Source: Anaerolineales bacterium (GTDB lineage: Bacteria; Chloroflexota; Anaerolineae; Anaerolineales; UBA4823). From it: a stretch of DNA of 38,970 nt. Under the pieces are notes generated by a model that did not search any database, was not told the origin of the DNA, and saw only the letters and a program-made list of their open reading frames with translations. Positions 3,800 to 38,759 of the stretch are shown piece by piece. The stretch spans positions 1 to 38,970 of the forward strand of contig JBFFIU010000003.1 of assembly GCA_041556275.1 (NCBI GenBank), written 5' to 3'. The stretch's first letter is position 1. Each line of letters starts with the position of its first letter. A program made the translations under genes and the position numbers.

Positions 3800-3951
3800 T
3801 TTGCTATTCAAATTTTATCCACGCAATCGGCGCTCATACAAAAACTGAGTTTATTCGTAATCATCAGTCATATATGTTAAACTTGTATTCGCTTTTATTC
3901 AAATATAGGTAAAAATGCTAAACAGATTCCAATAATCAAGGAGGTTATTAT

Positions 3952-4365
3952 ATGAGAAGAGGTCGAGCGATGCGCACGACTCGACGGCGAACAAGACGCC
4001 GGGTTCGCCGTCGTCATCGTAGACGAAGACGAAGAAGGATTTTAGTTGGAGGCGCGATCCTCTTGGGAGGTGGGGCACTAATCTACAAATTAACTAGGCA
4101 AGACACCGAGAGAATCGAAGAACATACCGGACAATCAGCTGAAGATTTATCTGATCAGGAACTTCAACAAGCGATGAGAGATTTGAATATCCAATCACAG
4201 GACCTCACCGATGAAGATCGCGCGACTCTTGGACAAGATGAAGGTGATGCCGCAAGCGAAACCTCCTATCTGGATGAACTGGAAAGATTAGGTCAGCTGC
4301 GTGATCAGGGGATCATTACTGATGATGAATTCGAAGCAAAGAAGAAAGAGCTGCTGGGTTTATAG
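3952..4365 (+). CDS. Arg-rich N-terminus / single TM / acidic domain / SHOCT protein (paralog 2)
   Basis: AAGGAGG SD; 20 Arg in the first 29 aa; TM ILVGGAILLGGGALIY; shares RIEEHTG, LNIQSQ and FEAKKKELLGL with 362-805. Confidence 0.9.
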   Translation: MRRGRAMRTTRRRTRRRVRRRHRRRRRRRILVGGAILLGGGALIYKLTRQDTERIEEHTGQSAEDLSDQELQQAMRDLNIQSQDLTDEDRATLGQDEGDAASETSYLDELERLGQLRDQGIITDDEFEAKKKELLGL

Positions 4366-4401: not shown

Positions 4402-4890
4402 ATGTCCAATTTGATCGTATTCACTTTTGATAACGAGACTGAAGCCGAGCGCATGCGCGATGCTTTGGTGAGCATGGAAAAGCAGAAGCTCATTTCCCTC
4501 GAAGATGCTGCTGTGGTTGTTCGCCGCCAGGACGGCAAGGTCAAAGTCAAGCAAGCACAAAGTCTGGTTGGTGCTGGTGCGCTTGGCGGATCTTTCTGGG
4601 GGCTGCTGATTGGATTGCTATTTTGGGCACCCTGGTTAGGATTGGCAATCGGGGCAGCAACAGGCGCTATTGCTGGTGGTCTCACCGATGTTGGCGTGGA
4701 TGATAAGTTCATAAAAGAAGTTGGCGATAAAATCGAGCCTGGTCACTCTGCTCTATTCTTGCTGGTGATCGATGCCACCCCAGATAAAGTAATGGAAGGA
4801 TTGCAGGGTTTCAGTCCATCCGTTTACCAGACTTCACTTTCCGATGAAGACGATGCTAAACTACGTGCTGCCTTTGGTGAGGAAGACTAA
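4402..4890 (+). CDS. DUF1269 family membrane protein
   Basis: LEDAAVVVRRQDGKVKVKQ, GALGGSFWGLLIGLLF, DVGVDDKFIKEVG, PGHSALFLLV, TSLSDEDDAKLRAA; AAGGAG SD. Confidence 0.9.
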   Translation: MSNLIVFTFDNETEAERMRDALVSMEKQKLISLEDAAVVVRRQDGKVKVKQAQSLVGAGALGGSFWGLLIGLLFWAPWLGLAIGAATGAIAGGLTDVGVDDKFIKEVGDKIEPGHSALFLLVIDATPDKVMEGLQGFSPSVYQTSLSDEDDAKLRAAFGEED

Positions 4891-4928
4891 CTTATCTGAG
4901 TAAATCCTTCAGATCATATATTCTGACC

Positions 4929-4967
4929 AGAAACCGGGTTTTCTCATAATCCCGGTTTCTATTTTTT
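4929..4967 (+). terminator. Rho-independent terminator
   Basis: AGAAACCGGG/CCCGGTTTCT 10-bp stem followed by ATTTTTT, lying between convergent genes. Confidence 0.8.
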
Positions 4968-5071
4968 AAGAATATGTGTATTTTAGATTAAAATCTCCCC
5001 TCTCCCTATTCAGTAGTATGCAAATGATAATCGGTATATATTGAAATTATCTGCGCTGAAGATCTGACAAT

Positions 5072-6733
5072 TTAAACGGTCTTCAAGTATTGATGGATCA
5101 ACTTCACGGCCATTGCTCCCTCGCCGACTGCAGTGGCCACCCTCTTGACTGACCCATGACGAACATCACCGGCGGCGAAGATTCCTGGAACGCTGGTCTC
5201 AAGGTAAAACGGGTCGCGTTTCGGTTTCCAACCTTGCGGCCGTTTTCCATCTTCAAGCAGATCCTGGCCGGTAAGAATGAACCCAACCCGGTCTCGCTCA
5301 ACGACATCCGCAATCAGGTCTGATCTCGGAATTGCTCCAATGAAAATGAACAGGGCTGCCGCAGATCGGGTCTCCTTTTCACCGGTGTTGCGATTACCGA
5401 ATGTGATCGACTCAAGTACCTCTGATCCTGCGACACTGATCACTTCTGTATCGTCGAGTACTTCGATGTTTTCGATTGCAGCGATCTGCTTGACCAGATA
5501 GGCAGACATGCTTCTCGAGAGTGAACTGCTGCGCGAGAGCATGGTGACTTTTCGGGCGTAGCGGGAGAAGAAAACCGCCGCCTGTCCAGCGGAATTCGCT
5601 CCACCTGCAATGAATACGTCCTGGTCTTTATAAGCGATAGCTTCGGCCAGGGATGCACCGTAATACACACCTGCACCATATAGTTTCTCGATTCCGGGCT
5701 CGGTGAGCTGACGCGTATTGACCCCAGTCGTGAGGAGCAGCGCAAGGCAGCTGAGCTCGCTCCCATCGCTCAATACCAAATAACGGTATGGATCCTCAAG
5801 GCGAACTTTTTCAACGCTCTGTGCCATGAGTATCTCTACATCGAAACGCTTGGCTTGCGTTGCAGCTCTTCGAGCCAATTCCGCGCCGCTGATTCCCTGG
5901 GGAAATCCCAGGTAGTTCTCAATTTTTGAGCTGGTTCCAGCTTGCCCACCGACTGCTTCCTTCTCGATCATCAGGGTTTTTAATCCTTCGGAACCACCAT
6001 AAACAGCAGCACCCAATCCTGCGGGTCCTCCTCCGACAATGATCAGGTCGTAAAATGGATGCACTGCCTCGGTCTGTAAGCCGACTTTTTCAGCCAGCTC
6101 CTTTGTATCCGGTTCGACGAGAATGCTTCCATCAGGGAAGAAAATTACCGGTAAGCGATCTTGTTTTCCACCAATAGTATCAATCAAGGATTTGGCTTCG
6201 TGATCTTTTTCGATATCTAACCATTGATATGGAATCTGATTGCGTGTCAAGAAATCTTTTACCGTGTGACTGCTGGTAGACCAAAGTGTGCCTGCCACTC
6301 GAATGCCGTGATATGGAACTCGCCGCGCGGCATACCAATCACTCAGCAGTTCATCCAGTAGGGGGTATAGTTTTTCCTCCGGAGGATCCCAGGGTTTCAG
6401 CAAGTAGAAGTCCAATCCTATTGAATTAATACTCTCTATGGCTGCTTCTGTATCTGAGTAAGCGGTAAGCAGTACTTTACGCGCCTCTGGGTAAAATTTG
6501 GTTGCCCTAGCTAAGAATTCCGTGCCGCTCATATCCGGCATTCGTTGATCGACTAAGAATAACGCGATTTGAGTGTTCCGTTGTTTCAGTCTCAATACAA
6601 TATCGAGTGCTTCACTACCTGATCCAGCCTCGATGATCTGGTAATCTCTCTGGTATCGTGCATGTAGATCACGCCCTACCGCTTTGAGAACAACCGGCTC
6701 ATCATCCACTGACATGATTACGGGTTTATCCAT
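5072..6733 (-). CDS. Response-regulator receiver + glutaredoxin-like + thioredoxin-reductase-like FAD oxidoreductase fusion
   Basis: REC motifs VDDE, VDQRMP, LLTAYSD, KPW; FAD motifs IVGGGPAGL and PGIFAAGDVR; NAD(P) motif AGGANSAGQ; AAGGAG SD. Confidence 0.92.
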   Translation of the reverse strand: MDKPVIMSVDDEPVVLKAVGRDLHARYQRDYQIIEAGSGSEALDIVLRLKQRNTQIALFLVDQRMPDMSGTEFLARATKFYPEARKVLLTAYSDTEAAIESINSIGLDFYLLKPWDPPEEKLYPLLDELLSDWYAARRVPYHGIRVAGTLWSTSSHTVKDFLTRNQIPYQWLDIEKDHEAKSLIDTIGGKQDRLPVIFFPDGSILVEPDTKELAEKVGLQTEAVHPFYDLIIVGGGPAGLGAAVYGGSEGLKTLMIEKEAVGGQAGTSSKIENYLGFPQGISGAELARRAATQAKRFDVEILMAQSVEKVRLEDPYRYLVLSDGSELSCLALLLTTGVNTRQLTEPGIEKLYGAGVYYGASLAEAIAYKDQDVFIAGGANSAGQAAVFFSRYARKVTMLSRSSSLSRSMSAYLVKQIAAIENIEVLDDTEVISVAGSEVLESITFGNRNTGEKETRSAAALFIFIGAIPRSDLIADVVERDRVGFILTGQDLLEDGKRPQGWKPKRDPFYLETSVPGIFAAGDVRHGSVKRVATAVGEGAMAVKLIHQYLKTV

Positions 6734-7029
6734 CTCAATTCTCCTTTAGTTATATGATCATCTGATCGCTATTAAAAAACCGCTGTCGCGCGGCCGTCGG
6801 AATTTTCAGATTGAAGATATATCATTTTCCCACCTTCACAAGGATCGTTTCCACACAATATCTACCTAAATGATTATTTATAACTTATACCTTTAAAGTC
6901 AATTTTGTTCAAGATCACGCTTCTTCAGAGAAAATATCGCTATATTATTCAACATTCAGGATGGTAGAATTCTATTTCATTAGAATTATTATCTGCTGGA
7001 ATTCTTACGAAGATTTGTCGAGATATGCT

Positions 7030-8022
7030 TTGGAAAAACAAATAAAGGAAAGATTCAACAACCTGATCTTGATGAAGGTTATCCAATCTTATGGCGTAAG
7101 AAATGATGACATCCAACTATTAGATGGATTCGAGAGCTTCATTTATGAATTTGACCGGGATGGAAAGAGTTACATCCTGCGCATCGGTCACGACCTCCGC
7201 CGTAGTGAAAACCTCATTCGCGGGGAGGTTGATTGGATCAACTACCTCCATCGTGGAGGGGCATCGGTATCGAAAGCCATCTTGACCATACATGGAGACC
7301 TTGTCGTGGCGGTCCCAGATGATCGGGGTGGACATTTTTTAGCAACCGCATTTGAAAAAGCCAAAGGTAAACCGGCCACGAAAGAAGTATGGAGCAAAGT
7401 GCTTTATGAGCGTTATGGGCGCCTGATCGGGAAGATGCATTCTTTAACCAAGGATTACTCTCCCTCCGATCCCTCCTGGATTCGTCCGCAATGGGATGGA
7501 CCTGAAATGTTGGATATCATTGGTTGGTTGCCGGATTCTGAGTCTTTGGTGCTCCAGAAGTATCTCGATTTAAAATCCCACATTGATAAACTACCAAAGA
7601 ATAAGGATATATTCGGGCTTATCCACCAGGATGCTCATGCGGGAAATTTCTATGTGGATGAGAAGGGAGAGATCACACTGTTTGATTTTGACGATTGTAC
7701 TTATAGTTGGTTTATCAACGATATCGCTATCGTTTTATTTTACATCGTCATGGGACAGAAAGATCAATCCTCCTTCACAAGGGAGTTTATGACCTACTTC
7801 CTAAAGGGATACTGCCAAGAAAATCAAATTGAGACGGAATGGCTGATTGATATCCCCTTATTCTTGAAACTGCGCGAGATTGACCTGTACGCTGTGATCC
7901 ATCGCAGTTTCGATGTTGAAAACATCGACCACCCTTGGGTTGCGATGTATATGGAAAACCGCAAGGAACGGATCGAGAACGAAGTGCCTTTTGTCGAGTT
8001 CGATTTTTCGTCTTTATATTGA
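7030..8022 (+). CDS. APH/choline-kinase-like phosphotransferase (YerI/AmiN-like)
   Basis: Brenner motif IHQDAHAGNF and LFDFDD; YILRI; WFINDIAI. Start more likely TTG 7030 than ATG 6961. Confidence 0.85.
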   Translation: MEKQIKERFNNLILMKVIQSYGVRNDDIQLLDGFESFIYEFDRDGKSYILRIGHDLRRSENLIRGEVDWINYLHRGGASVSKAILTIHGDLVVAVPDDRGGHFLATAFEKAKGKPATKEVWSKVLYERYGRLIGKMHSLTKDYSPSDPSWIRPQWDGPEMLDIIGWLPDSESLVLQKYLDLKSHIDKLPKNKDIFGLIHQDAHAGNFYVDEKGEITLFDFDDCTYSWFINDIAIVLFYIVMGQKDQSSFTREFMTYFLKGYCQENQIETEWLIDIPLFLKLREIDLYAVIHRSFDVENIDHPWVAMYMENRKERIENEVPFVEFDFSSLY

Positions 8023-8081
8023 AATTTATTGGTTAATGAAGAATTGTAAGGGACTCTACGAAAATTTATCTGGGGGAATCC

Positions 8082-8513
8082 CTAACGTCCAATAATATAT
8101 TTTTCGAGCTGATCGATGACAAACTCTTGCTCAGAGATAATATCCTTAACCACATCTCCGATAGAGATCACACCGACGAGTTGTTCACCATCAAACACTG
8201 GTAGGTGTCGAATGCGCTTTTCTGTCATTATCGCCATGCACTCGTTAACTGGAGTACGAATATTAACACATATCACTTTAGCGGTCATGATCTCGCGCAC
8301 CAACGTGTCCTTGGAGGCTTTCCCTTTCAGGATGATCTTCCTGGCGTAATCCCGTTCGGAAATGACGCCCACCAATTCATCATTTTCCATCACTAGCAAG
8401 GCGCCAGCCTCTTTATCTGCCATCATTACAAGCGCATCGTAAACCGATGCATCAGGATGAACTGACCAAATCTCGTGGCCCTTCGACTTTAAGAGACTCT
8501 CTGCTGTATCCAA
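8082..8513 (-). CDS. Tandem CBS domain protein
   Basis: LVGVISERDYARK, VREIMT, RIRHLPV, LVGVISIGDVVK; TTG start with GGGAGAG SD. Confidence 0.93.
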   Translation of the reverse strand: MDTAESLLKSKGHEIWSVHPDASVYDALVMMADKEAGALLVMENDELVGVISERDYARKIILKGKASKDTLVREIMTAKVICVNIRTPVNECMAIMTEKRIRHLPVFDGEQLVGVISIGDVVKDIISEQEFVIDQLEKYIIGR

Positions 8514-32297: not shown

Positions 32298-32326
32298 TGT
32301 AACATGATCAGGCATTAATTCGTTAT
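32298..32326 (+). promoter_or_regulatory. ECF-sigma-like promoter (TGTAAC-N17-CGTTAT)
   Basis: TGTAAC 32298-32303 and CGTTAT 32321-32326, upstream of the GHMP kinase; the motif recurs at 33774, 34041 and 37949. Confidence 0.6.
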
Positions 32327-32410
32327 GAATGGTGGGTGTGGGAAAAATGCACAAAAATTCTAATTTGTCCTCATACCAATTTTAGTTTGTATTCTTTCGG
32401 AGGTTTTTGT

Positions 32411-33409
32411 TTGATAATATCTCGTACTCCTTTGCGGATCAGTTTTGCTGGTGGGGGCAGTGATTTGGTTGCTTTCTACCAGCAAGAAACTGGAGCGGTT
32501 CTCAGCACTTCTATAAACAAATATATATATATCACTGTAAATAGGAAATTTGATGAAAAAATAAGAGCTAGCTATTCCATAACTGAGATTGTTAATGGTG
32601 TAGATGAACTTAAACATGAATTGATCCGAGAAGCTCTAAAGATTGTACTTCCACCATGTGGAATTGAGATCACATCAATTTCTGACATCCCTTCTCAGGG
32701 TACTGGATTAGGCTCATCAAGCACCTATACAGTGGGCTTGTTAAATTCGTTGTACGCACATGTCGGGCAACATGTAGGAGCAGAGCGGTTGGCTAAAGAA
32801 GCTTGTGAGATAGAGATCGAACGTTGCCAGAAACCAATTGGCAAGCAAGATCAATATATCGCTGCATACGGAGGCTTGCAGTACATCCGCTTCAATCCCG
32901 ATGAAAGTGTGTATGTGGATCCAGTTATTTGCAATCCTGAAACAAAACTACGTTTACAACAAAGTTTACTTATGCTTTATACAGGACTGACGCGGTCAGC
33001 AGATGGTATTCTTCATGAACAAAGCGTTAATACCCAGAATGATGGTGAAAAGCGTGAAAGCCTGCGGCGAATGACCCACATGGCTGAAGAATTAAGAGAT
33101 GCGCTTGTACTCAACGATTTGGATGGTTTTGGTGAGATTTTGCACCAAGGTTGGATGGAGAAGAAAAAATTAGCATCTGGGATCAGCAATCAACAAATTG
33201 ACCAATGGTACGAGACTTCCAGGCAGAACGGTGCAATCGGTGGGAAAGTCCTTGGTGCAGGGGGTGGTGGATTCTTACTTTTGTATGCTCCCCCCGACAG
33301 ATTCCCAGAGATCATGCATGCCTTGCCTGAATTGCAACCAGTGACATTTAAATTTGAACCACAGGGGAGTAAGATTATATACGTTGAAGAAAATGGAGAA
33401 TGTTATTAG
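32411..33409 (+). CDS. GHMP kinase, HddA-like (D-glycero-D-manno-heptose-7-phosphate kinase family)
   Basis: SRTPLRISFAGGGSD, GTGLGSSS, GKQDQYIAAYGG, GGKVLGAGGGGF; GGAGG SD before TTG 32411. Confidence 0.88.
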   Translation: MIISRTPLRISFAGGGSDLVAFYQQETGAVLSTSINKYIYITVNRKFDEKIRASYSITEIVNGVDELKHELIREALKIVLPPCGIEITSISDIPSQGTGLGSSSTYTVGLLNSLYAHVGQHVGAERLAKEACEIEIERCQKPIGKQDQYIAAYGGLQYIRFNPDESVYVDPVICNPETKLRLQQSLLMLYTGLTRSADGILHEQSVNTQNDGEKRESLRRMTHMAEELRDALVLNDLDGFGEILHQGWMEKKKLASGISNQQIDQWYETSRQNGAIGGKVLGAGGGGFLLLYAPPDRFPEIMHALPELQPVTFKFEPQGSKIIYVEENGECY

Positions 33410-33449
33410 CATATACAGTTACATTGATGTGGACACCGATAAATAAAAT

Positions 33450-33485
33450 GAGACCTCTAGCTCAATCGCCTGCTGGGGGTCTCTT
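33450..33485 (+). terminator. Hairpin downstream of the GHMP kinase
   Basis: GAGACCTCTAGC/GCTGGGGGTCTC 12-bp stem with two G-U pairs on the plus strand; weak U-tract. Confidence 0.5.
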
Positions 33486-33622
33486 GGGTTTATGAATGAT
33501 TTCCTGCAGTGGAAATTAATAATCAAAAAAATAATTTGAAGGATATTATCATTAGACCTATTGTGAAAGAACTTGGTTACAAATTTACCAGGTTGGCGTT
33601 TTGGTAAATCATTAAAAATGCC

Positions 33623-33651
33623 TTGCATTTTTATTAAATTAGTGCGATAAT
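33623..33651 (+). promoter_or_regulatory. Sigma-70 promoter with extended -10 (for RNA-A)
   Basis: TTGCAT, 17 nt, TGc then GATAAT; no ORF downstream. Confidence 0.6.
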
Positions 33652-33652
33652 A

Positions 33653-33715
33653 GGCCTGCCCCACTAGGCCCCCTCTGTCCTGGTTGCCCCCCCCAACCAG
33701 ACAGAGGGGTTATTT
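33653..33715 (+). ncRNA. Candidate sRNA RNA-A (C-rich loops)
   Basis: Hairpin GGCCT-GCCCCACT-AGGCC, then a 16-bp hairpin CCCCTCTGTC.TGGTTG/CAACCA.GACAGAGGGG with a poly-C loop, then TTATTT. Confidence 0.55.
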
Positions 33716-33773
33716 GGTTAATCTATTCTGGATTTCAGAGATGTAAAAGAAATCAATTTTGAACACCAAGGAG

Positions 33774-33801
33774 TGTAACAAATTTAAATCAACGGCGTTA
33801 T
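33774..33801 (+). promoter_or_regulatory. ECF-sigma-like promoter (TGTAAC-N16-CGTTAT) for RNA-B
   Basis: TGTAAC 33774-33779 and CGTTAT 33796-33801. Confidence 0.65.
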
Positions 33802-33809
33802 TATATTTA

Positions 33810-33965
33810 GCCCACGAGAGCGGGGGTTTAGCGGAAGACTTTGAAGCATCATTATTGGGTCTCGGGGGCCAGTGGGGTGTGAGGTGAAAATCAACCATCT
33901 CACTCGGGTAGGGGGGTGCATATGTCCAGGCGCTTCCAGCGTGGAGGAAGCGCCTGGACATTTTT
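33810..33965 (+). ncRNA. Candidate sRNA RNA-B (G-rich single-stranded segments)
   Basis: P1 GCCCACGAGA/TCTCGGGGGC, P2 GTGAGGTG/CATCTCAC, perfect 16-bp terminator ATGTCCAGGCGCTTCC/GGAAGCGCCTGGACAT plus T run; has its own promoter. Confidence 0.6.
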
Positions 33966-34040
33966 AAAAGACTATATTTTACAAATTATTTTAAAACATG
34001 GTCAGCTTGCATACTTGAAAGGTCATTTAGACCTATTTTG

Positions 34041-34068
34041 TGTAACAATTCGTATAAGAAATCGTTAT
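34041..34068 (+). promoter_or_regulatory. ECF-sigma-like promoter (TGTAAC-N16-CGTTAT) for RNA-C
   Basis: TGTAAC 34041-34046 and CGTTAT 34063-34068; hexamers and spacing identical to 33774. Confidence 0.65.
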
Positions 34069-34073
34069 TTCTG

Positions 34074-34243
34074 ATGGATACGGGTGATACGGTAAGAAGT
34101 AAGGACAGGTATATTGCAAGTTTTATCGGTAAAAATTTAGTATCACCCCTCCAGTAAATATATACCTGGCTCCTTCATTCCTACTTCTCCCTCCTGCACG
34201 CCGCCGCCTGGGTTTCTCTCCTTTACCAGGCGGTTGGCGTTTA
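34074..34243 (+). ncRNA. Candidate sRNA RNA-C (crossing helices, CUCC anti-SD motifs)
   Basis: GGGTGATAC/GTATCACCC and CAGGTATAT/ATATACCTG crossing helices; terminal hairpin ACGCCGCCGCCTGG/CCAGGCGGTTGGCGT. Confidence 0.6.
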
Positions 34244-34261
34244 ATCAGGATAAAGTAGAAA

Positions 34262-34292
34262 GTAAACAGGCTGGGAAAAACTCCCAGCCTGA
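34262..34292 (-). terminator. Intrinsic terminator for minus-strand genes
   Basis: CAGGCTGGGA/TCCCAGCCTG stem followed by TTTACTTT on the minus strand. Confidence 0.7.
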
Positions 34293-34316
34293 TAAGTTAT
34301 AAAGGAATTTCTCAAT

Positions 34317-34645
34317 TTAATTCAATCGGCATCCAAGGTTATTGTAGAAATCCAAATTCCTCTTAGGAGAAAGCATTGCACCGCGTGACTTCGTCAAAGC
34401 TGAATCAACGCTGACGATTATTCGTGCGCTGTTTAAGGGGTAACCCCATAGGGGAGAGCTGCATTCTTTATTGCAGCTGTGGCATGGCGAAGCAGGATGC
34501 GTGCAGCTCCTATCTTGTAAGGCCCTCCTTTGAATTTTAGAGCCTGTAAAAGTGGCTTGTTGTCTAGATAAGTGCACTGATCTGGCACATCAAATACTTC
34601 AGCAACGGTTTGGGCCATACTATAACCGGTAGCAGCTCAGGCAAA
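34317..34645 (-). pseudogene. Degraded C-terminal domain of a secreted protein (LLRxAxAA.LNA...YP...LDxxNNLGCxLN type)
   Basis: One frame reads FA*AATGYSMAQTVAEVFDVP...LLQALKFKGG...GAARILLRHATAAIKNAA; a shifted frame continues GYPLNSARIIVSVDSALTKSRGAML...LDFYNNLGCRLN*. One internal stop and one frameshift. Confidence 0.6.
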
Positions 34646-34696
34646 TGATACCCATAAATTCAATTATGCCAATGGATCAGTCACCAGATAAAAGCT

Positions 34697-35362
34697 TTAA
34701 TGAGTACCAGGGAACAAAAACTGCAAGATGTTGAAAGTACTGTAACAAAAACTATCTACTAGATCGCCATCTTTATCTCGTAGGTATGCACAGTCGCTAA
34801 AATCGTTCCAAACAGGTTCATTTCTTCCCCAGTACAGATTCTCCGTATCTATCACCCCGTCTTTGGTCCAAATTTTGACGCTAGCCCAGTCGACCAGTGT
34901 ATAGCGAGGGAATGTGTAAATATTTTGCTTCTCATCCCGCAAAGTCCACCCATCCAAGGAGATAAATTTTCCAAATTGATTGCGTATAGTAACATATTCA
35001 TCCAATGGGTTTCCTTGGGGTGCATATTCGATATCTAAGATAAAAACACCTGGTACCAGGGTTGGCGTAGGAGTAATTGTTCGTGTTGGGGTTGAAGTGG
35101 GTAGTGTTCCTGTCACAGTTGGAGTTGAAGTGGGGAGCGTTCCTGTCACTGTTGGAGTGATTGTGATAGTACCGGTTACAGTGGGTGTCAAAGTTTGAGT
35201 CGGCGTGGGGGTTTTTGTTAGATCTTGCCTGGCAACGTAGGGAAGGTAATTCAAAGATTGAAATGCAGCCTGGACAACTATCACGCTTCCAACGATTAAA
35301 ATGATTACAAACAGCCATTTCACTGTTGGAAATAAACTAGGTTGTTTAGATGGTTCATTCAT
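34697..35362 (-). CDS. Secreted lamin-tail-domain (LTD) protein with Thr/Pro linker
   Basis: Signal/TM segment, NYLPYVARQ, TPT repeats, DEYVTIRN..ISLDGWTLRDE..YTFP, LYWGR..PVWND..D.AYLRD.DG. Start probably ATG 35362. Confidence 0.85.
   Translation of the reverse strand: MNEPSKQPSLFPTVKWLFVIILIVGSVIVVQAAFQSLNYLPYVARQDLTKTPTPTQTLTPTVTGTITITPTVTGTLPTSTPTVTGTLPTSTPTRTITPTPTLVPGVFILDIEYAPQGNPLDEYVTIRNQFGKFISLDGWTLRDEKQNIYTFPRYTLVDWASVKIWTKDGVIDTENLYWGRNEPVWNDFSDCAYLRDKDGDLVDSFCYSTFNILQFLFPGTH
35085..35160 (-). repeat. 33-nt tandem repeat encoding TPTVTGTLPTS
   Basis: GTTGG(G/A)GTTGAAGTGGG...GTTCCTGTCAC units at 35085 and 35118, partial unit at 35151. Confidence 0.8.
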
Positions 35363-35517
35363 AATTGCCGACCAAGTGAATCGTTTATGTCCTTGGGATA
35401 CTCTATTATATGCAAATATTCCTGACTGCGAAGAAACCAATTATTTGATGACTAATCTAGCTCCTATAAGTCTCTACCACCTATTTAATTGAGTATTTGA
35501 TATCGTTAATAGTTAAT

Positions 35518-37948: not shown

Positions 37949-37976
37949 TGTAACATGGGGGCTTGAAATACGTTTA
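37949..37976 (+). promoter_or_regulatory. ECF-sigma-like promoter (TGTAAC-N16-CGTTTA)
   Basis: TGTAAC 37949-37954 and CGTTTA 37971-37976, ending 27 nt before ATG 38004. Confidence 0.6.
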
Positions 37977-38003: not shown

Positions 38004-38759
38004 ATGAAAATACCAATTTTCTTCGTAATTATCGCAACGCTGGCCGTGCCTGTAATTTTAGTCCCTACTTCGGGCTCAACGATTCATGAATATGGCGATT
38101 TGACCCAAAATGGCTCTTTTTGGTTGGATAGCGTGGATCAGGTATGGGATATTACCCTCTGTGATTTAGAACTGTCCTATACTGTGGACATGTCCCGATA
38201 TATACCCCTTAAACAACAAACTGAATGGACAAATGTTGGTATTGGAAGCGGTGTTTGGGCATGGATGTCCTCAGGAGCCCCGAAAGCTGCACAGACAGAT
38301 CCAAATCAGTACGATCTTGACGATAAACTCCATCTTGGAGGCTTTCCGAACAAGATGGATGAATTGTCTTATGATGCGCTTGATCCCCAAAAAATAATTG
38401 AAGCGCCTGTCGGCGATCCTTGGGCTAATTATGGAATCTGGTTTGATCGCGACGGTGTTTCCAGCGGCCAATCGAAGCTGTGGGGCATGATCAATACTTT
38501 CACCTATAATACCGGGGGCAAGTACCGGGTTTCATTAAGATTTCATGCCATAACGGATGAATTAGGCACAGTATTTGCCACTGTCAACGGTGTGCAAACT
38601 GGTTTCTATGATGTATGGAGGAATGGGCAACCCGATTATTATCCGATCGGGGAGAGCATTGACGGTGATTTAACTCGAGCAAGAGTATTCGCATCTGTAT
38701 GGGGGGAAAACGTTAGATTAACCAATATTGTTACAAGCGGCTGTCAACCGGTTCCATAA
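38004..38759 (+). CDS. Secreted hypothetical protein
   Basis: N-terminal signal peptide MKIPIFFVIIATLAVPVIL; aromatic/Gly-rich, probably beta-rich; no family recognised. Confidence 0.75.
   Translation: MKIPIFFVIIATLAVPVILVPTSGSTIHEYGDLTQNGSFWLDSVDQVWDITLCDLELSYTVDMSRYIPLKQQTEWTNVGIGSGVWAWMSSGAPKAAQTDPNQYDLDDKLHLGGFPNKMDELSYDALDPQKIIEAPVGDPWANYGIWFDRDGVSSGQSKLWGMINTFTYNTGGKYRVSLRFHAITDELGTVFATVNGVQTGFYDVWRNGQPDYYPIGESIDGDLTRARVFASVWGENVRLTNIVTSGCQPVP

Follow-up and report, generated by a model that had tools for sequence, protein, structure and literature searches.

The window analysed here is a stretch of 38,970 nucleotides (nt) from contig JBFFIU010000003.1 of an Anaerolineales bacterium (Chloroflexota; assembly GCA_041556275.1). 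Between a GHMP-kinase gene (32336-33409, plus strand) and a gene for a lamin-tail-domain protein (34697-35440, minus strand) lies a gap, positions 33410-34696, in which the initial annotation had seen no credible coding sequence. This view held: the gap has no open reading frame (ORF) of at least 100 amino acids, and the longest, of 81-86 amino acids, are on the minus strand. Spanning 33623-34244 of the plus strand are three successive units, each a promoter followed by a structured RNA region and a 3' hairpin, at island positions that the same annotation had placed correctly to within a few bases. We refer to the predicted products as RNA1, RNA2 and RNA3. Comparison with related genomes suggests that these are three independent small RNA (sRNA) genes that probably form one regulatory set, in which a C-rich sRNA with a housekeeping-type promoter is joined by a G-rich, sponge-like partner and by an sRNA with motifs resembling an anti-Shine-Dalgarno (anti-SD) sequence, the latter two carrying promoters of the extracytoplasmic function (ECF) type.

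The first unit opens with a sigma-70-type promoter (33623-33651, plus strand) composed of TTGCAT (33623-33628), a 17-nt spacer and TGC-GATAAT (33643-33651). This TTGCAT-N17-TGCGATAAT element is kept in 6/6 genomes of the genus that have the locus, and the sequence upstream of it does not align. RNA1 is a long-form member of a family of sRNAs with a C-rich loop (see below). Its covariance model, R1, matches positions 33652-33719 of the plus strand with 95.8 bits, and the predicted transcript, with both start and end predicted, runs from about 33657 to 33716 (~60 nt). After a few variable bases behind the promoter, 59 nt (33657-33715) are identical in the same six genomes. The RNA begins with a C-rich 5' extension, TGCCCCACTAGGCCCCCTCTG (33657-33677), which is the predicted RNA2-pairing site and is identical in 9/9 long-form copies from four genera. 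It continues into a hairpin (33670-33709) whose stem of 15-16 pairs has one bulge and two perfect outer arms of 10 nt, and whose loop, at about 33687-33694, contains 7-8 C; TTATTT follows. The unpaired C-rich motifs of RNA1 are thus this loop and the 5' CCCCAC...GGCCCCC.

RNA2 has a promoter of the ECF type (33774-33801, plus strand), with TGTAAC (33774-33779) and CGTTAT (33796-33801) separated by 16 nt. TGTAAC-N16-CGTT is invariant in 9/9 RNA2 loci, and its flanks do not align. The RNA itself is G-rich, about 155 nt long (33808-33968, plus strand, with a predicted end near 33966), and 9 of the 137 genomes searched from the bacterial family match its model, R2. Within it, the G-rich site CGGGGGCCAGTGGGGTG (33863-33879), flagged as part of an inverted repeat, is complementary to the 5' extension of RNA1; it is mostly unpaired in a first consensus fold and partly paired with the 5' end of RNA2 in a second. 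The RNA ends in a terminator (33922-33966) in which a 16-base-pair stem with perfect arms (33922-33961) and an 8-nt loop are followed by TTTTT. The loop has a conserved GCGTGGA core, CGTGGA being invariant in 9/9 sequences, and 11/16 stem pairs change on both sides among these nine sequences. An 8-pair hairpin (GUGAGGUG/CAUCUCAC) is also retained, with three one-sided changes that preserve pairing. The remaining helices are uninformative because they never vary.

A second ECF-type promoter (34041-34068, plus strand; TGTAAC at 34041-34046, a 16-nt spacer and CGTTAT at 34063-34068) precedes RNA3. It is aligned and conserved in 9/10 RNA3 loci, with AGTAAC in genome G047; in genome G062 the aligner misplaced it, and GTAAC-N16-CGTT can be read by eye, so that (T/A)GTAAC-N16-CGTT is readable in 10/10. 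RNA3 is about 170 nt long (model match 34071-34248, predicted extent about 34072-34244, plus strand), and its model, R3, matches 10/137 genomes. A variable 5' domain, in which a stem (34082-34089 with 34141-34148, GGGUGAU/AUCACCC) shows compensatory changes and encloses a small variable hairpin, is followed by a near-invariant 3' domain; from CTACTTC onward the sequence is invariant in 10/10. This 3' domain comprises an unpaired CU-rich stretch (34169-34197) with CTCCTT and CCCTCCT, and a 3' hairpin (34198-34244) with a 14-nt CU-rich loop, GTTTCTCTCCTTTA, and the tail TTTAA. The hairpin proper (34198-34240) has 14 pairs, at one of which G-C, A-U and G-U alternate. There are three anti-SD-like motifs in all, two in the single-stranded stretch and one in the terminator loop. 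The C-rich, G-rich and CU-rich characters that the initial annotation gave to the three islands are borne out.

Known RNA families do not account for the locus. Rfam 15, the check that had been proposed for novelty, returned no match at the gathering score in the entire window. At E<=10 with permissive filters, positions 33300-34750 gave 10 matches, every one below gathering; the top-scoring of these, isrP (27.9 vs 45 bits), falls past the third island, at 34263-34353 of the minus strand. The RsaE/RoxS covariance model had no match to the window at the gathering score, nor to 33300-34750 at E<=10. On related loci with the trio, or with the convergent pair described below, Rfam found only c-di-GMP-I riboswitches and tRNA, both elsewhere. 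On the plus strand, islands 1, 2 and 3 are more stably folded than their dinucleotide shuffles (z = -4.08, -3.79 and -4.01; 0/200 shuffles as good for each). The minus strands fold well too (z = -2.52, -5.38 and -3.14), which means that the strand cannot be told from folding alone.

More telling is the comparison with relatives. A BLAST search of the gap against 40 relatives recovered pieces in 6/9 same-genus genomes and, from another genus, a single short piece. When six loci are aligned (seven for RNA3), conservation falls into three blocks with sharp edges, and the sequence 5' of each promoter cannot be aligned. Within the genus, the RNA3 stretch 34163-34247 is 95-96% identical, compared with 77-80% for the RNA1-RNA2 stretch. 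Judged from these alignments, selection appears to act on the RNAs and less on the surrounding DNA. In the eight loci examined (six of the genus, G047 and G062), no plus-strand ORF follows RNA1, RNA2 or RNA3, so none of the three is a leader of a plus-strand gene, and none lies in the 5' untranslated region of a same-strand gene, as a riboswitch or other cis-acting leader would. Each unit instead has its own promoter, its own 3' hairpin and no co-transcribed gene.

The three RNAs occur as a set. Long-form RNA1, recognized by its 5' extension (UGCCCCACUAGGCCCCCUCUG) and a score of at least 78 bits, is present in only nine genomes, six of the genus together with G047, G062 and G081 from three other genera. 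RNA2 is found in exactly these 9/137 genomes, and RNA3 in the same nine plus G004, in which the contig begins just before RNA3. In G081, the three RNAs are on different contigs, which shows that the co-occurrence of the trio is independent of adjacency. Because the nine genomes are kin, this co-occurrence represents one or a few evolutionary events, not nine independent ones. The set is thereby upheld, whereas the tandem array described by the initial annotation is not a fixed unit. In 5/9 genomes with both RNA2 and RNA3, one or two minus-strand genes (1.7-5.5 kb) lie between the two. Three of the six genus genomes have a minus-strand gene of 482-548 codons there, the G002 copy of which (L009:2617-4263) encodes a PAS-GGDEF protein by Pfam. 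In G047 and G062, RNA1 adjoins RNA2, and RNA3 is about 5.5 kb downstream on the same strand with two minus-strand genes intervening; those of G047 encode PAS-GGDEF and PAS-GAF-HD proteins by Pfam (L067:8371-9987 and 4852-8364), and G062 has ORFs of like size. The PAS-GGDEF diguanylate cyclase gene of relatives is divergent from RNA3, and it is missing from the window and from two genomes of the genus. The gene downstream of RNA3 is on the minus strand in all six genus loci. Among 32 scanned database loci (chosen from 80 by Chloroflexota-type labels), two have RNA1 and RNA2 beside the kinase gene.

RNA1 is not confined to this locus and belongs to a family spread over the order. We searched with the R1 model at E<=0.01 in the 137 genomes of the bacterial family and at E<=0.001 in 151 sampled genomes of the order. 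Matches were found in 64/137 genomes of the former and in 19/151 of the latter, covering 5 of 18 families, four of them beyond the host's own. Genomes carry 1-5 copies. All 33 further family copies that we inspected have a hairpin with a C-rich loop, and most have the promoter-hairpin-U-tract layout. Their upper stem and loop read YGG(U/G)UG-(C/U)CCCCC(C/U)-CA(A/C)CCR, with the U tract next in most copies; the apical loop, G-(C/U)CCCCC(C/U)-C, and its two closing pairs are invariant. A sigma-70-type promoter (CTTGC or CTTGA, 17 nt, then (TG)nGATAAT or CATAAT) stands a few bases 5' of most copies, including those of other genera and families. In an alignment of 34 sequences, 97.4% of cells pair and 12/16 pairs change on both sides (117 cells), which 0/500 shuffles reach; fitting the alignment to the model favours the structure, but the margin is large. 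Sliding the 3' partner by 1-3 columns left 30-51% of cells paired. Covariation, which the initial annotation had made a touchstone of its proposal, is strong in the stem of this family, and the RNA2 terminator has pairs changed on both sides as well. By these features, the C-loop family is a predicted and hitherto undescribed sRNA family of this Chloroflexota order, a unit of about 50 nt with a promoter, a single hairpin and a constant C-rich loop. A second C-loop hairpin of this genome (contig C180:6716-6774; L075:1517-1575) is directly after a tRNA gene and about 20 nt 5' of an ORF whose ribosome-binding site is purine-rich; in contrast to RNA1, this hairpin could have a cis-acting role.

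We read the promoters of RNA2 and RNA3 as ECF promoters because the same motif also precedes two paralogous ECF sigma genes. As described in PMC5758882, ECF promoters are recognized by AAC in their -35 element and CGT in their -10 element, and the sigma genes are usually autoregulated. The RNA2 and RNA3 promoters have this AAC and CGT, a fixed spacing and a motif shared with the sigma's own promoter. TGTAAC-N16-CGTTA occurs seven times in this genome, compared with 0-1 times for spacers of 14, 15, 17, 18 and 20 nt, and 7, 7, 9 and 4 times in four relatives, compared with 2, 1, 0 and 0 for the reversed pattern. Among the 13 sigma-70-family genes of this genome, one of ECF size on contig C43 (domains Sigma70_r2, Sigma70_r4 and Sigma70_ECF) has AGTAAC-N16-CGTTAA 15 nt before its ATG. 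The motif stands 14-16 nt before the ATG of this gene in 5/5 orthologous loci, and the paralogous sigma gene is preceded by TGTAAC-N16-CGTTCA in 4/4 loci; these distances imply a very short leader for both sigma genes. From the motif, RNA2 and RNA3 would depend on a C43-type ECF sigma. This divides what had been described as a single co-regulated array, since RNA1 has a promoter of the sigma-70 type. Other sites of the motif in this genome precede an operon with glycosyltransferase and polysaccharide-deacetylase genes, a gene for an ABC substrate-binding protein, a gene for an S8 protease with a long leader, and two genes for proline/threonine-rich secreted proteins.

The C43 sigma gene encodes 189 amino acids and is followed by a gene for a 414-amino-acid DUF5667 protein with a proline/threonine-rich part, which is likely an anti-sigma factor (both genes in L163:539-2378; orthologues L164-L167). 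The paralogous sigma (L168-L171) is about 60% identical to it.

How might RNA1 and RNA2 be connected? A repeat finder had marked 33659-33672 as complementary to 33864-33877. When the RNA1 5' extension by itself was placed against RNA2, the best duplex fell on the homologous RNA2 site in 9/9 genomes, with energies of -30.0 to -34.6 kcal/mol; in this window, 33657-33677 pairs with 33863-33879 at -34.6 kcal/mol. Shuffled RNA2 sequences gave means of -23.7 to -25.6 kcal/mol and did as well in 2, 2, 3, 4, 2, 12, 2, 41 and 23 of 500 cases. The RNA2 site is variable at two central positions, and each variant keeps 15-16 pairs, with the single bulge merely moved. RNA2 thus presents one mark of a sponge RNA, a G-rich region, predicted to be largely unpaired, with complementarity to the C-rich region of its partner in 9/9 genomes. 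The idea that the members regulate one another gains from this specific complementarity as far as RNA1 and RNA2 are concerned.

A second arrangement of C-rich and G-rich RNAs exists in relatives. Here, a short C-loop sRNA faces, on the opposite strand, a hairpin RNA with a U tract driven by TGTAAC-N16-CGTTAT; three R1 matches in relatives are 105-111 nt from such a convergent promoter. These convergent pairs occur at L072:1453-1612 (G006), L073, L074, L181, L184, L186, L187 and L029. The facing RNA, which we call the G-loop RNA, was found by BLAST in 8/137 genomes and has no match in the assembly of this genome. It is beside an R1 match in 8/9 places, the ninth being cut by a contig end. Its 16-nt loop, GGCUAGUUGGGUGGGA, forms nine perfect pairs, one mismatch and four pairs with the facing C loop and 3' arm, UCCCCCCCAACUAGGC, in a hand alignment. 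The two genes do not overlap (gap 37-83 nt), so the loop complementarity is not a by-product of antisense transcription. Whole-hairpin duplexes were no better than shuffles, and the case for this pair rests on the loop complementarity read by hand. A type I toxin-antitoxin reading was rejected, as there is no conserved ORF. The RNA1 5' extension, CCCCACUAGGC, resembles the C-loop region of the short form, CCCCAACUAGGC, and the RNA2 site resembles the G loop; on these likenesses, the tandem pair may derive from the convergent pair.

The data recorded as RNA comprise 12 runs from three studies that contain the stretch, and we examined contigs from four libraries. In one library, a second contig has A for G at 34212, in the RNA3 terminator loop (depth 13.5 of 19.3). 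This is the variant of the genus's other species, which indicates that RNA3 sequences of relatives are present in the same sample. As for RNA-binding proteins, a search of this genome, which is 89% complete, found neither Hfq nor CsrA, and it revealed KhpA-like (82 amino acids) and KhpB-like (275 amino acids) genes. The C-rich sRNAs RoxS, FsrA and RsaE pair through C-rich regions, according to PMC8216469, and the failure to find Hfq and CsrA fits the mode described for such sRNAs.

Taken together, we favour a model of three independent sRNA genes that act as one regulatory set, in which the C-rich sRNA is constitutive and ECF induction brings in both its sponge-like partner and the anti-SD sRNA. 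We put its probability at roughly 55%. RNA1 would be made constitutively from its housekeeping-type promoter and would act through its C loop and 5' extension. Once released, presumably by a signal at the cell envelope or surface, the ECF sigma would switch on RNA2 and RNA3 along with genes for envelope and secreted proteins; given that the promoters of both RNAs are those of an autoregulated ECF sigma, both would appear upon sigma release. RNA2 would then bind the 5' extension of RNA1 through its fixed site of 16-17 nt, titrating or redirecting RNA1 in the manner of a sponge or anti-sRNA. RNA3 would cover purine-rich ribosome-binding sites with its three unpaired CU-rich motifs and so repress translation; that the trio controls ribosome-binding sites of mRNAs, as the initial annotation had proposed, is something we infer. 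A wider scheme, which we offer tentatively, makes the C-loop sRNA a riboregulatory hub on which the ECF sigma would act through dedicated, neighbour-encoded G-rich anti-sRNAs in place of an mRNA repressor; these would have arisen at least twice, in tandem and convergent form. Surface stress would be relayed by one RNA antagonizing another, and RNA3 would form a parallel anti-SD arm.

A number of results weigh against this model of a regulatory trio. Generic scans performed at chance, finding five promoter-like sites where 3.3 +/- 2.0 are expected, without that of RNA1, and two terminator-like sites where 1.4 +/- 1.3 are expected. With the folding strand-ambiguous and the scan at chance, the letters of this locus by themselves are not decisive, and it is the comparison with relatives that decides. 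The promoter that had been claimed for each spacer likewise rests on its conservation in relatives and not on the scan. The initial annotation also gave each island a hairpin with a T-rich tail; the hairpins stand, and of the tails only that of RNA2 is clean, those of RNA1 (TTATTT) and RNA3 (TTTAA) being weak for an intrinsic terminator. No member of the trio was found in 3/10 genus genomes (G005, G007 and G009, which are 58, 85 and 86% complete). RNA-library contigs have a flat depth of about 2-9 over the whole 5-kb stretch, genes and gap alike; they carry no start, end or strand signal, and DNA carry-over is possible, so that they speak neither for discrete RNAs nor for their absence.

The pairing and target results contain further adverse points. 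The predicted RNA1-RNA2 duplex is weak in G062 and G047, the genomes in which 41 and 23 of 500 shuffles equal it, and the invariance of the pairing region of RNA1 means that no compensatory change is available as proof of the interaction. Whole-molecule RNA1-RNA2 duplexes are no better than dinucleotide shuffles in 7/9 genomes (102, 61, 82, 55, 10, 66, 2, 43 and 63 of 200 shuffles as good); these energies are not evidence, since values of about -56 to -59 kcal/mol follow from G/C composition alone. Pairing of the RNA1 C loop with the RNA2 G tracts was rejected (22 to 291 of 500 shuffles as good). No specific pairing of RNA3 with RNA2 was found (50 to 209 of 300 shuffles as good), and the notion that RNA2 is a sponge of RNA3 too was dropped, the RNA3 CU stretch and terminator loop pairing no better than shuffles; for these two members, the proposed contact is explained by composition. 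Both sides of the convergent pair are nearly invariant, and the sole variant pair (G076) is uncompensated. Perfect complements of at least 11 nt to the RNA3 CU stretch number 39 genome-wide outside its own gene, compared with about 43 expected by chance on our own estimate. A crude duplex scan of 2,823 start regions, which were defined by a simple ORF rule and not by a gene finder and gave many top matches at doubtful starts, revealed no coherent target set. Several complements of the RNA3 loop do fall on ribosome-binding sites (AAGGAGAGAAAC-ATG), as expected of any Shine-Dalgarno complement. Repression by RNA3 of its own sigma gene was rejected, the start region of that gene ranking 1,345 of 2,823. 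Nor, in five genomes, did RNA3 have a consistent site around the start of the divergent PAS-GGDEF gene, where the choice of start codons is uncertain.

Other explanations fit parts of these observations. The direction of the RNA1-RNA2 effect could be reversed, with RNA2 and the G-loop RNA as stress-induced effectors that act on C-rich mRNA sites or via a G-quadruplex-like fold, and the constitutive C-loop RNA as a threshold buffer. Complementarity and co-occurrence are symmetric and fit this direction equally; RNA2 has five tracts of 4-6 G that are unpaired or weakly paired in the consensus fold, and its 5' GCCCAC is complementary to the GTGGGG within its RNA1-pairing site, hinting at a switch. 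We nevertheless consider the reversal unlikely, because the C-loop family (64/137 genomes) is spread well beyond its G-rich partners (9 and 8 of 137), and the C loop must thus have a role without them. Somewhat more doubtful still is that the RNAs are protein decoys, the C-rich loop binding an RNA-binding protein, for example one of the KH-domain KhpA/KhpB kind whose genes are present here, and RNA2 and RNA3 binding others. A loop conserved across the order on a stem free to vary is what a protein-recognition loop would look like, Hfq and CsrA were not found, and the complement search and the start-region scan gave no mRNA target. A conserved seed loop is equally typical of base-pairing sRNAs, however, and a protein decoy would have no need of G-rich neighbours complementary to its C-rich parts in two separate arrangements.

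The remaining readings have little in their favour. It is very improbable that the units are cis-acting remains, either terminators of their neighbours or leaders and attenuators that have lost their downstream genes and are kept by position. Each unit does end in a terminator-like hairpin, the C180 paralogue is directly upstream of an ORF, and in three relatives the convergent PAS-GGDEF gene ends right at the RNA2 terminator, which could also serve that gene on the other strand. Yet all three units have conserved promoters of their own and no plus-strand gene behind them, RNA1 starts about 240 nt past the upstream gene, and the best-conserved parts are unpaired (the RNA1 5' extension and the RNA3 CU stretch) or loops, not terminator stems. 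We give least credence of all to small protein-coding genes or non-transcribed DNA elements such as repeats or protein-binding sites, despite the small ORFs on the islands (83 codons at 33710-33961 on the minus strand; 31-52 on the plus strand) and the multicopy nature of the C-loop hairpin. The 83-codon ORF is not kept in relatives and was rejected as a gene. The other coding readings fell on poor conservation and on 1-nt indels, which occur in otherwise invariant sequence at columns 87 and 107 of the RNA2 alignment and, in G047 and G062, as an insertion in the RNA3 loop, and which exclude conserved reading frames. Against both the coding and the DNA-element version, changes occur in compensating pairs, and most inspected hairpin copies have a promoter at a fixed distance, unlike repetitive extragenic palindromic (REP)-type repeats.

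The surroundings of the trio and of its presumed regulon offered several further observations. The ~400 nt between RNA3 and the lamin-tail-domain gene (34296-34700) have no match in the nine other genomes of the genus, and neither of their small minus-strand ORFs (61 and 86 amino acids) matches Pfam; read on the minus strand, 34267-34291 forms a hairpin with a T-rich tail. The segment looks like a lineage-specific insertion of unknown nature. Two further ECF-type promoters are on the plus strand of the window, a variant with a 17-nt spacer before the GHMP-kinase gene (32298-32326) and TGTAAC-N16-CGTTTA (37949-37976), 28 nt before ORF 38004-38759, which has no Pfam family. A similar G-rich 5' word follows several ECF-type promoters: GTGAATGTGGG in the RNA3 of relatives (34069-34090 here) and on contig C208 near 3760, and GAATGGTGGGTGTGGG before the kinase gene (32327-32345). 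This word may belong to the promoter itself or be a 5' element common to these transcripts. In G008 (L159:2736-2923), two tandem c-di-GMP-I riboswitches (69.9 bits each in Rfam) follow an ECF-type promoter and precede a gene for a subtilisin-like S8 protease, and the same layout is seen in this genome on contig C178 near 5734; sigma-factor and cyclic di-GMP control appear to be stacked on this gene. A conserved leader of about 70-100 nt, with the core GGTCGCTTAYCTATCC...GGATAG...AGGTCATTGGGGAGCGAA, separates ECF-type promoters from genes whose products are secreted and rich in proline/threonine (contig C401 near 1166-1430 and 2446-2650; L160:123-370 and 3856-4070 in G008). One copy is followed by a terminator-like hairpin, Rfam has no match for this leader, and we regard it as a candidate for an unknown cis-regulatory RNA.

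The outcome of this work is three RNA families, each with a model, coordinates and a promoter, a testable wiring proposal and a motif-defined ECF regulon that takes in glycosyltransferase, polysaccharide-deacetylase and secreted proline/threonine-rich proteins as well as a protease behind c-di-GMP riboswitches. Among the papers listed by a limited full-text literature search, none gave a prior account of riboregulation in Chloroflexota. If the pairing is real, sRNA-sponge control tied to an envelope-stress sigma would exist far outside Firmicutes and Proteobacteria. The three RNAs could also be used as annotation markers for these uncultured lineages.

The closest functional parallel is with the sRNA-sponge pairs of Firmicutes. 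In PMC8216469, RoxS and FsrA of B. subtilis are bound by the sponge RosA, and RsaI does likewise in S. aureus, the G-rich regions of a stand-alone RNA pairing with the C-rich regions of the sRNA; such a sponge lowers the activity of the sRNA, and its transcriptional control differs from that of the sRNA. The likeness is that RNA1 is C-rich, RNA2 is G-rich, the two have different promoters and no Hfq was found, and the difference in control is that RosA is under CcpA, whereas RNA2 has an ECF-type promoter. There is no homology of sequence or structure to RoxS/RsaE-RosA, RNA1 consists of one hairpin in about 60 nt, and the partner genes are here neighbours, in tandem or convergent. The likeness is one of function only, and on our side it is known from sequence and predicted pairing. 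MicA, RybB and MicL of enterobacteria are sRNAs that depend on sigma-E, an ECF sigma, and form the repressing arm of the envelope-stress regulon. FoxJ of Fusobacterium is likewise reported as an ECF sigma-dependent sRNA (PMC11005410). Similarly, RNA2 and RNA3 share the motif of the sigma's own promoter and of envelope and secreted-protein gene promoters. They differ from these sRNAs in having no homology to them, in belonging to a Chloroflexota host in which Hfq was not found, and in a sigma dependence read from the motif alone; moreover, one of the two ECF-type RNAs, RNA2, is seemingly aimed at an sRNA and not at mRNAs. The LhrC family of Listeria, which is induced by envelope stress, pairs with Shine-Dalgarno regions through several unpaired UCCC or CU-rich motifs, and RNA3 is similar in having three unpaired CU-rich motifs in a loop and a linker. 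RNA3 is not homologous to LhrC, however; it is a single-copy RNA of about 170 nt with a variable 5' domain and had no target in our scans. Finally, plasmid copy-number RNAs are antisense pairs that interact by kissing loops, which recall the complementary loops of the neighbouring hairpins in the convergent pair, but here the convergent genes are non-overlapping (with the 37-83 nt gap), chromosomal and free of any coding gene. The three RNAs are thus new families of known kinds: a base-pairing sRNA, a sponge-like partner and ECF-dependent sRNAs.

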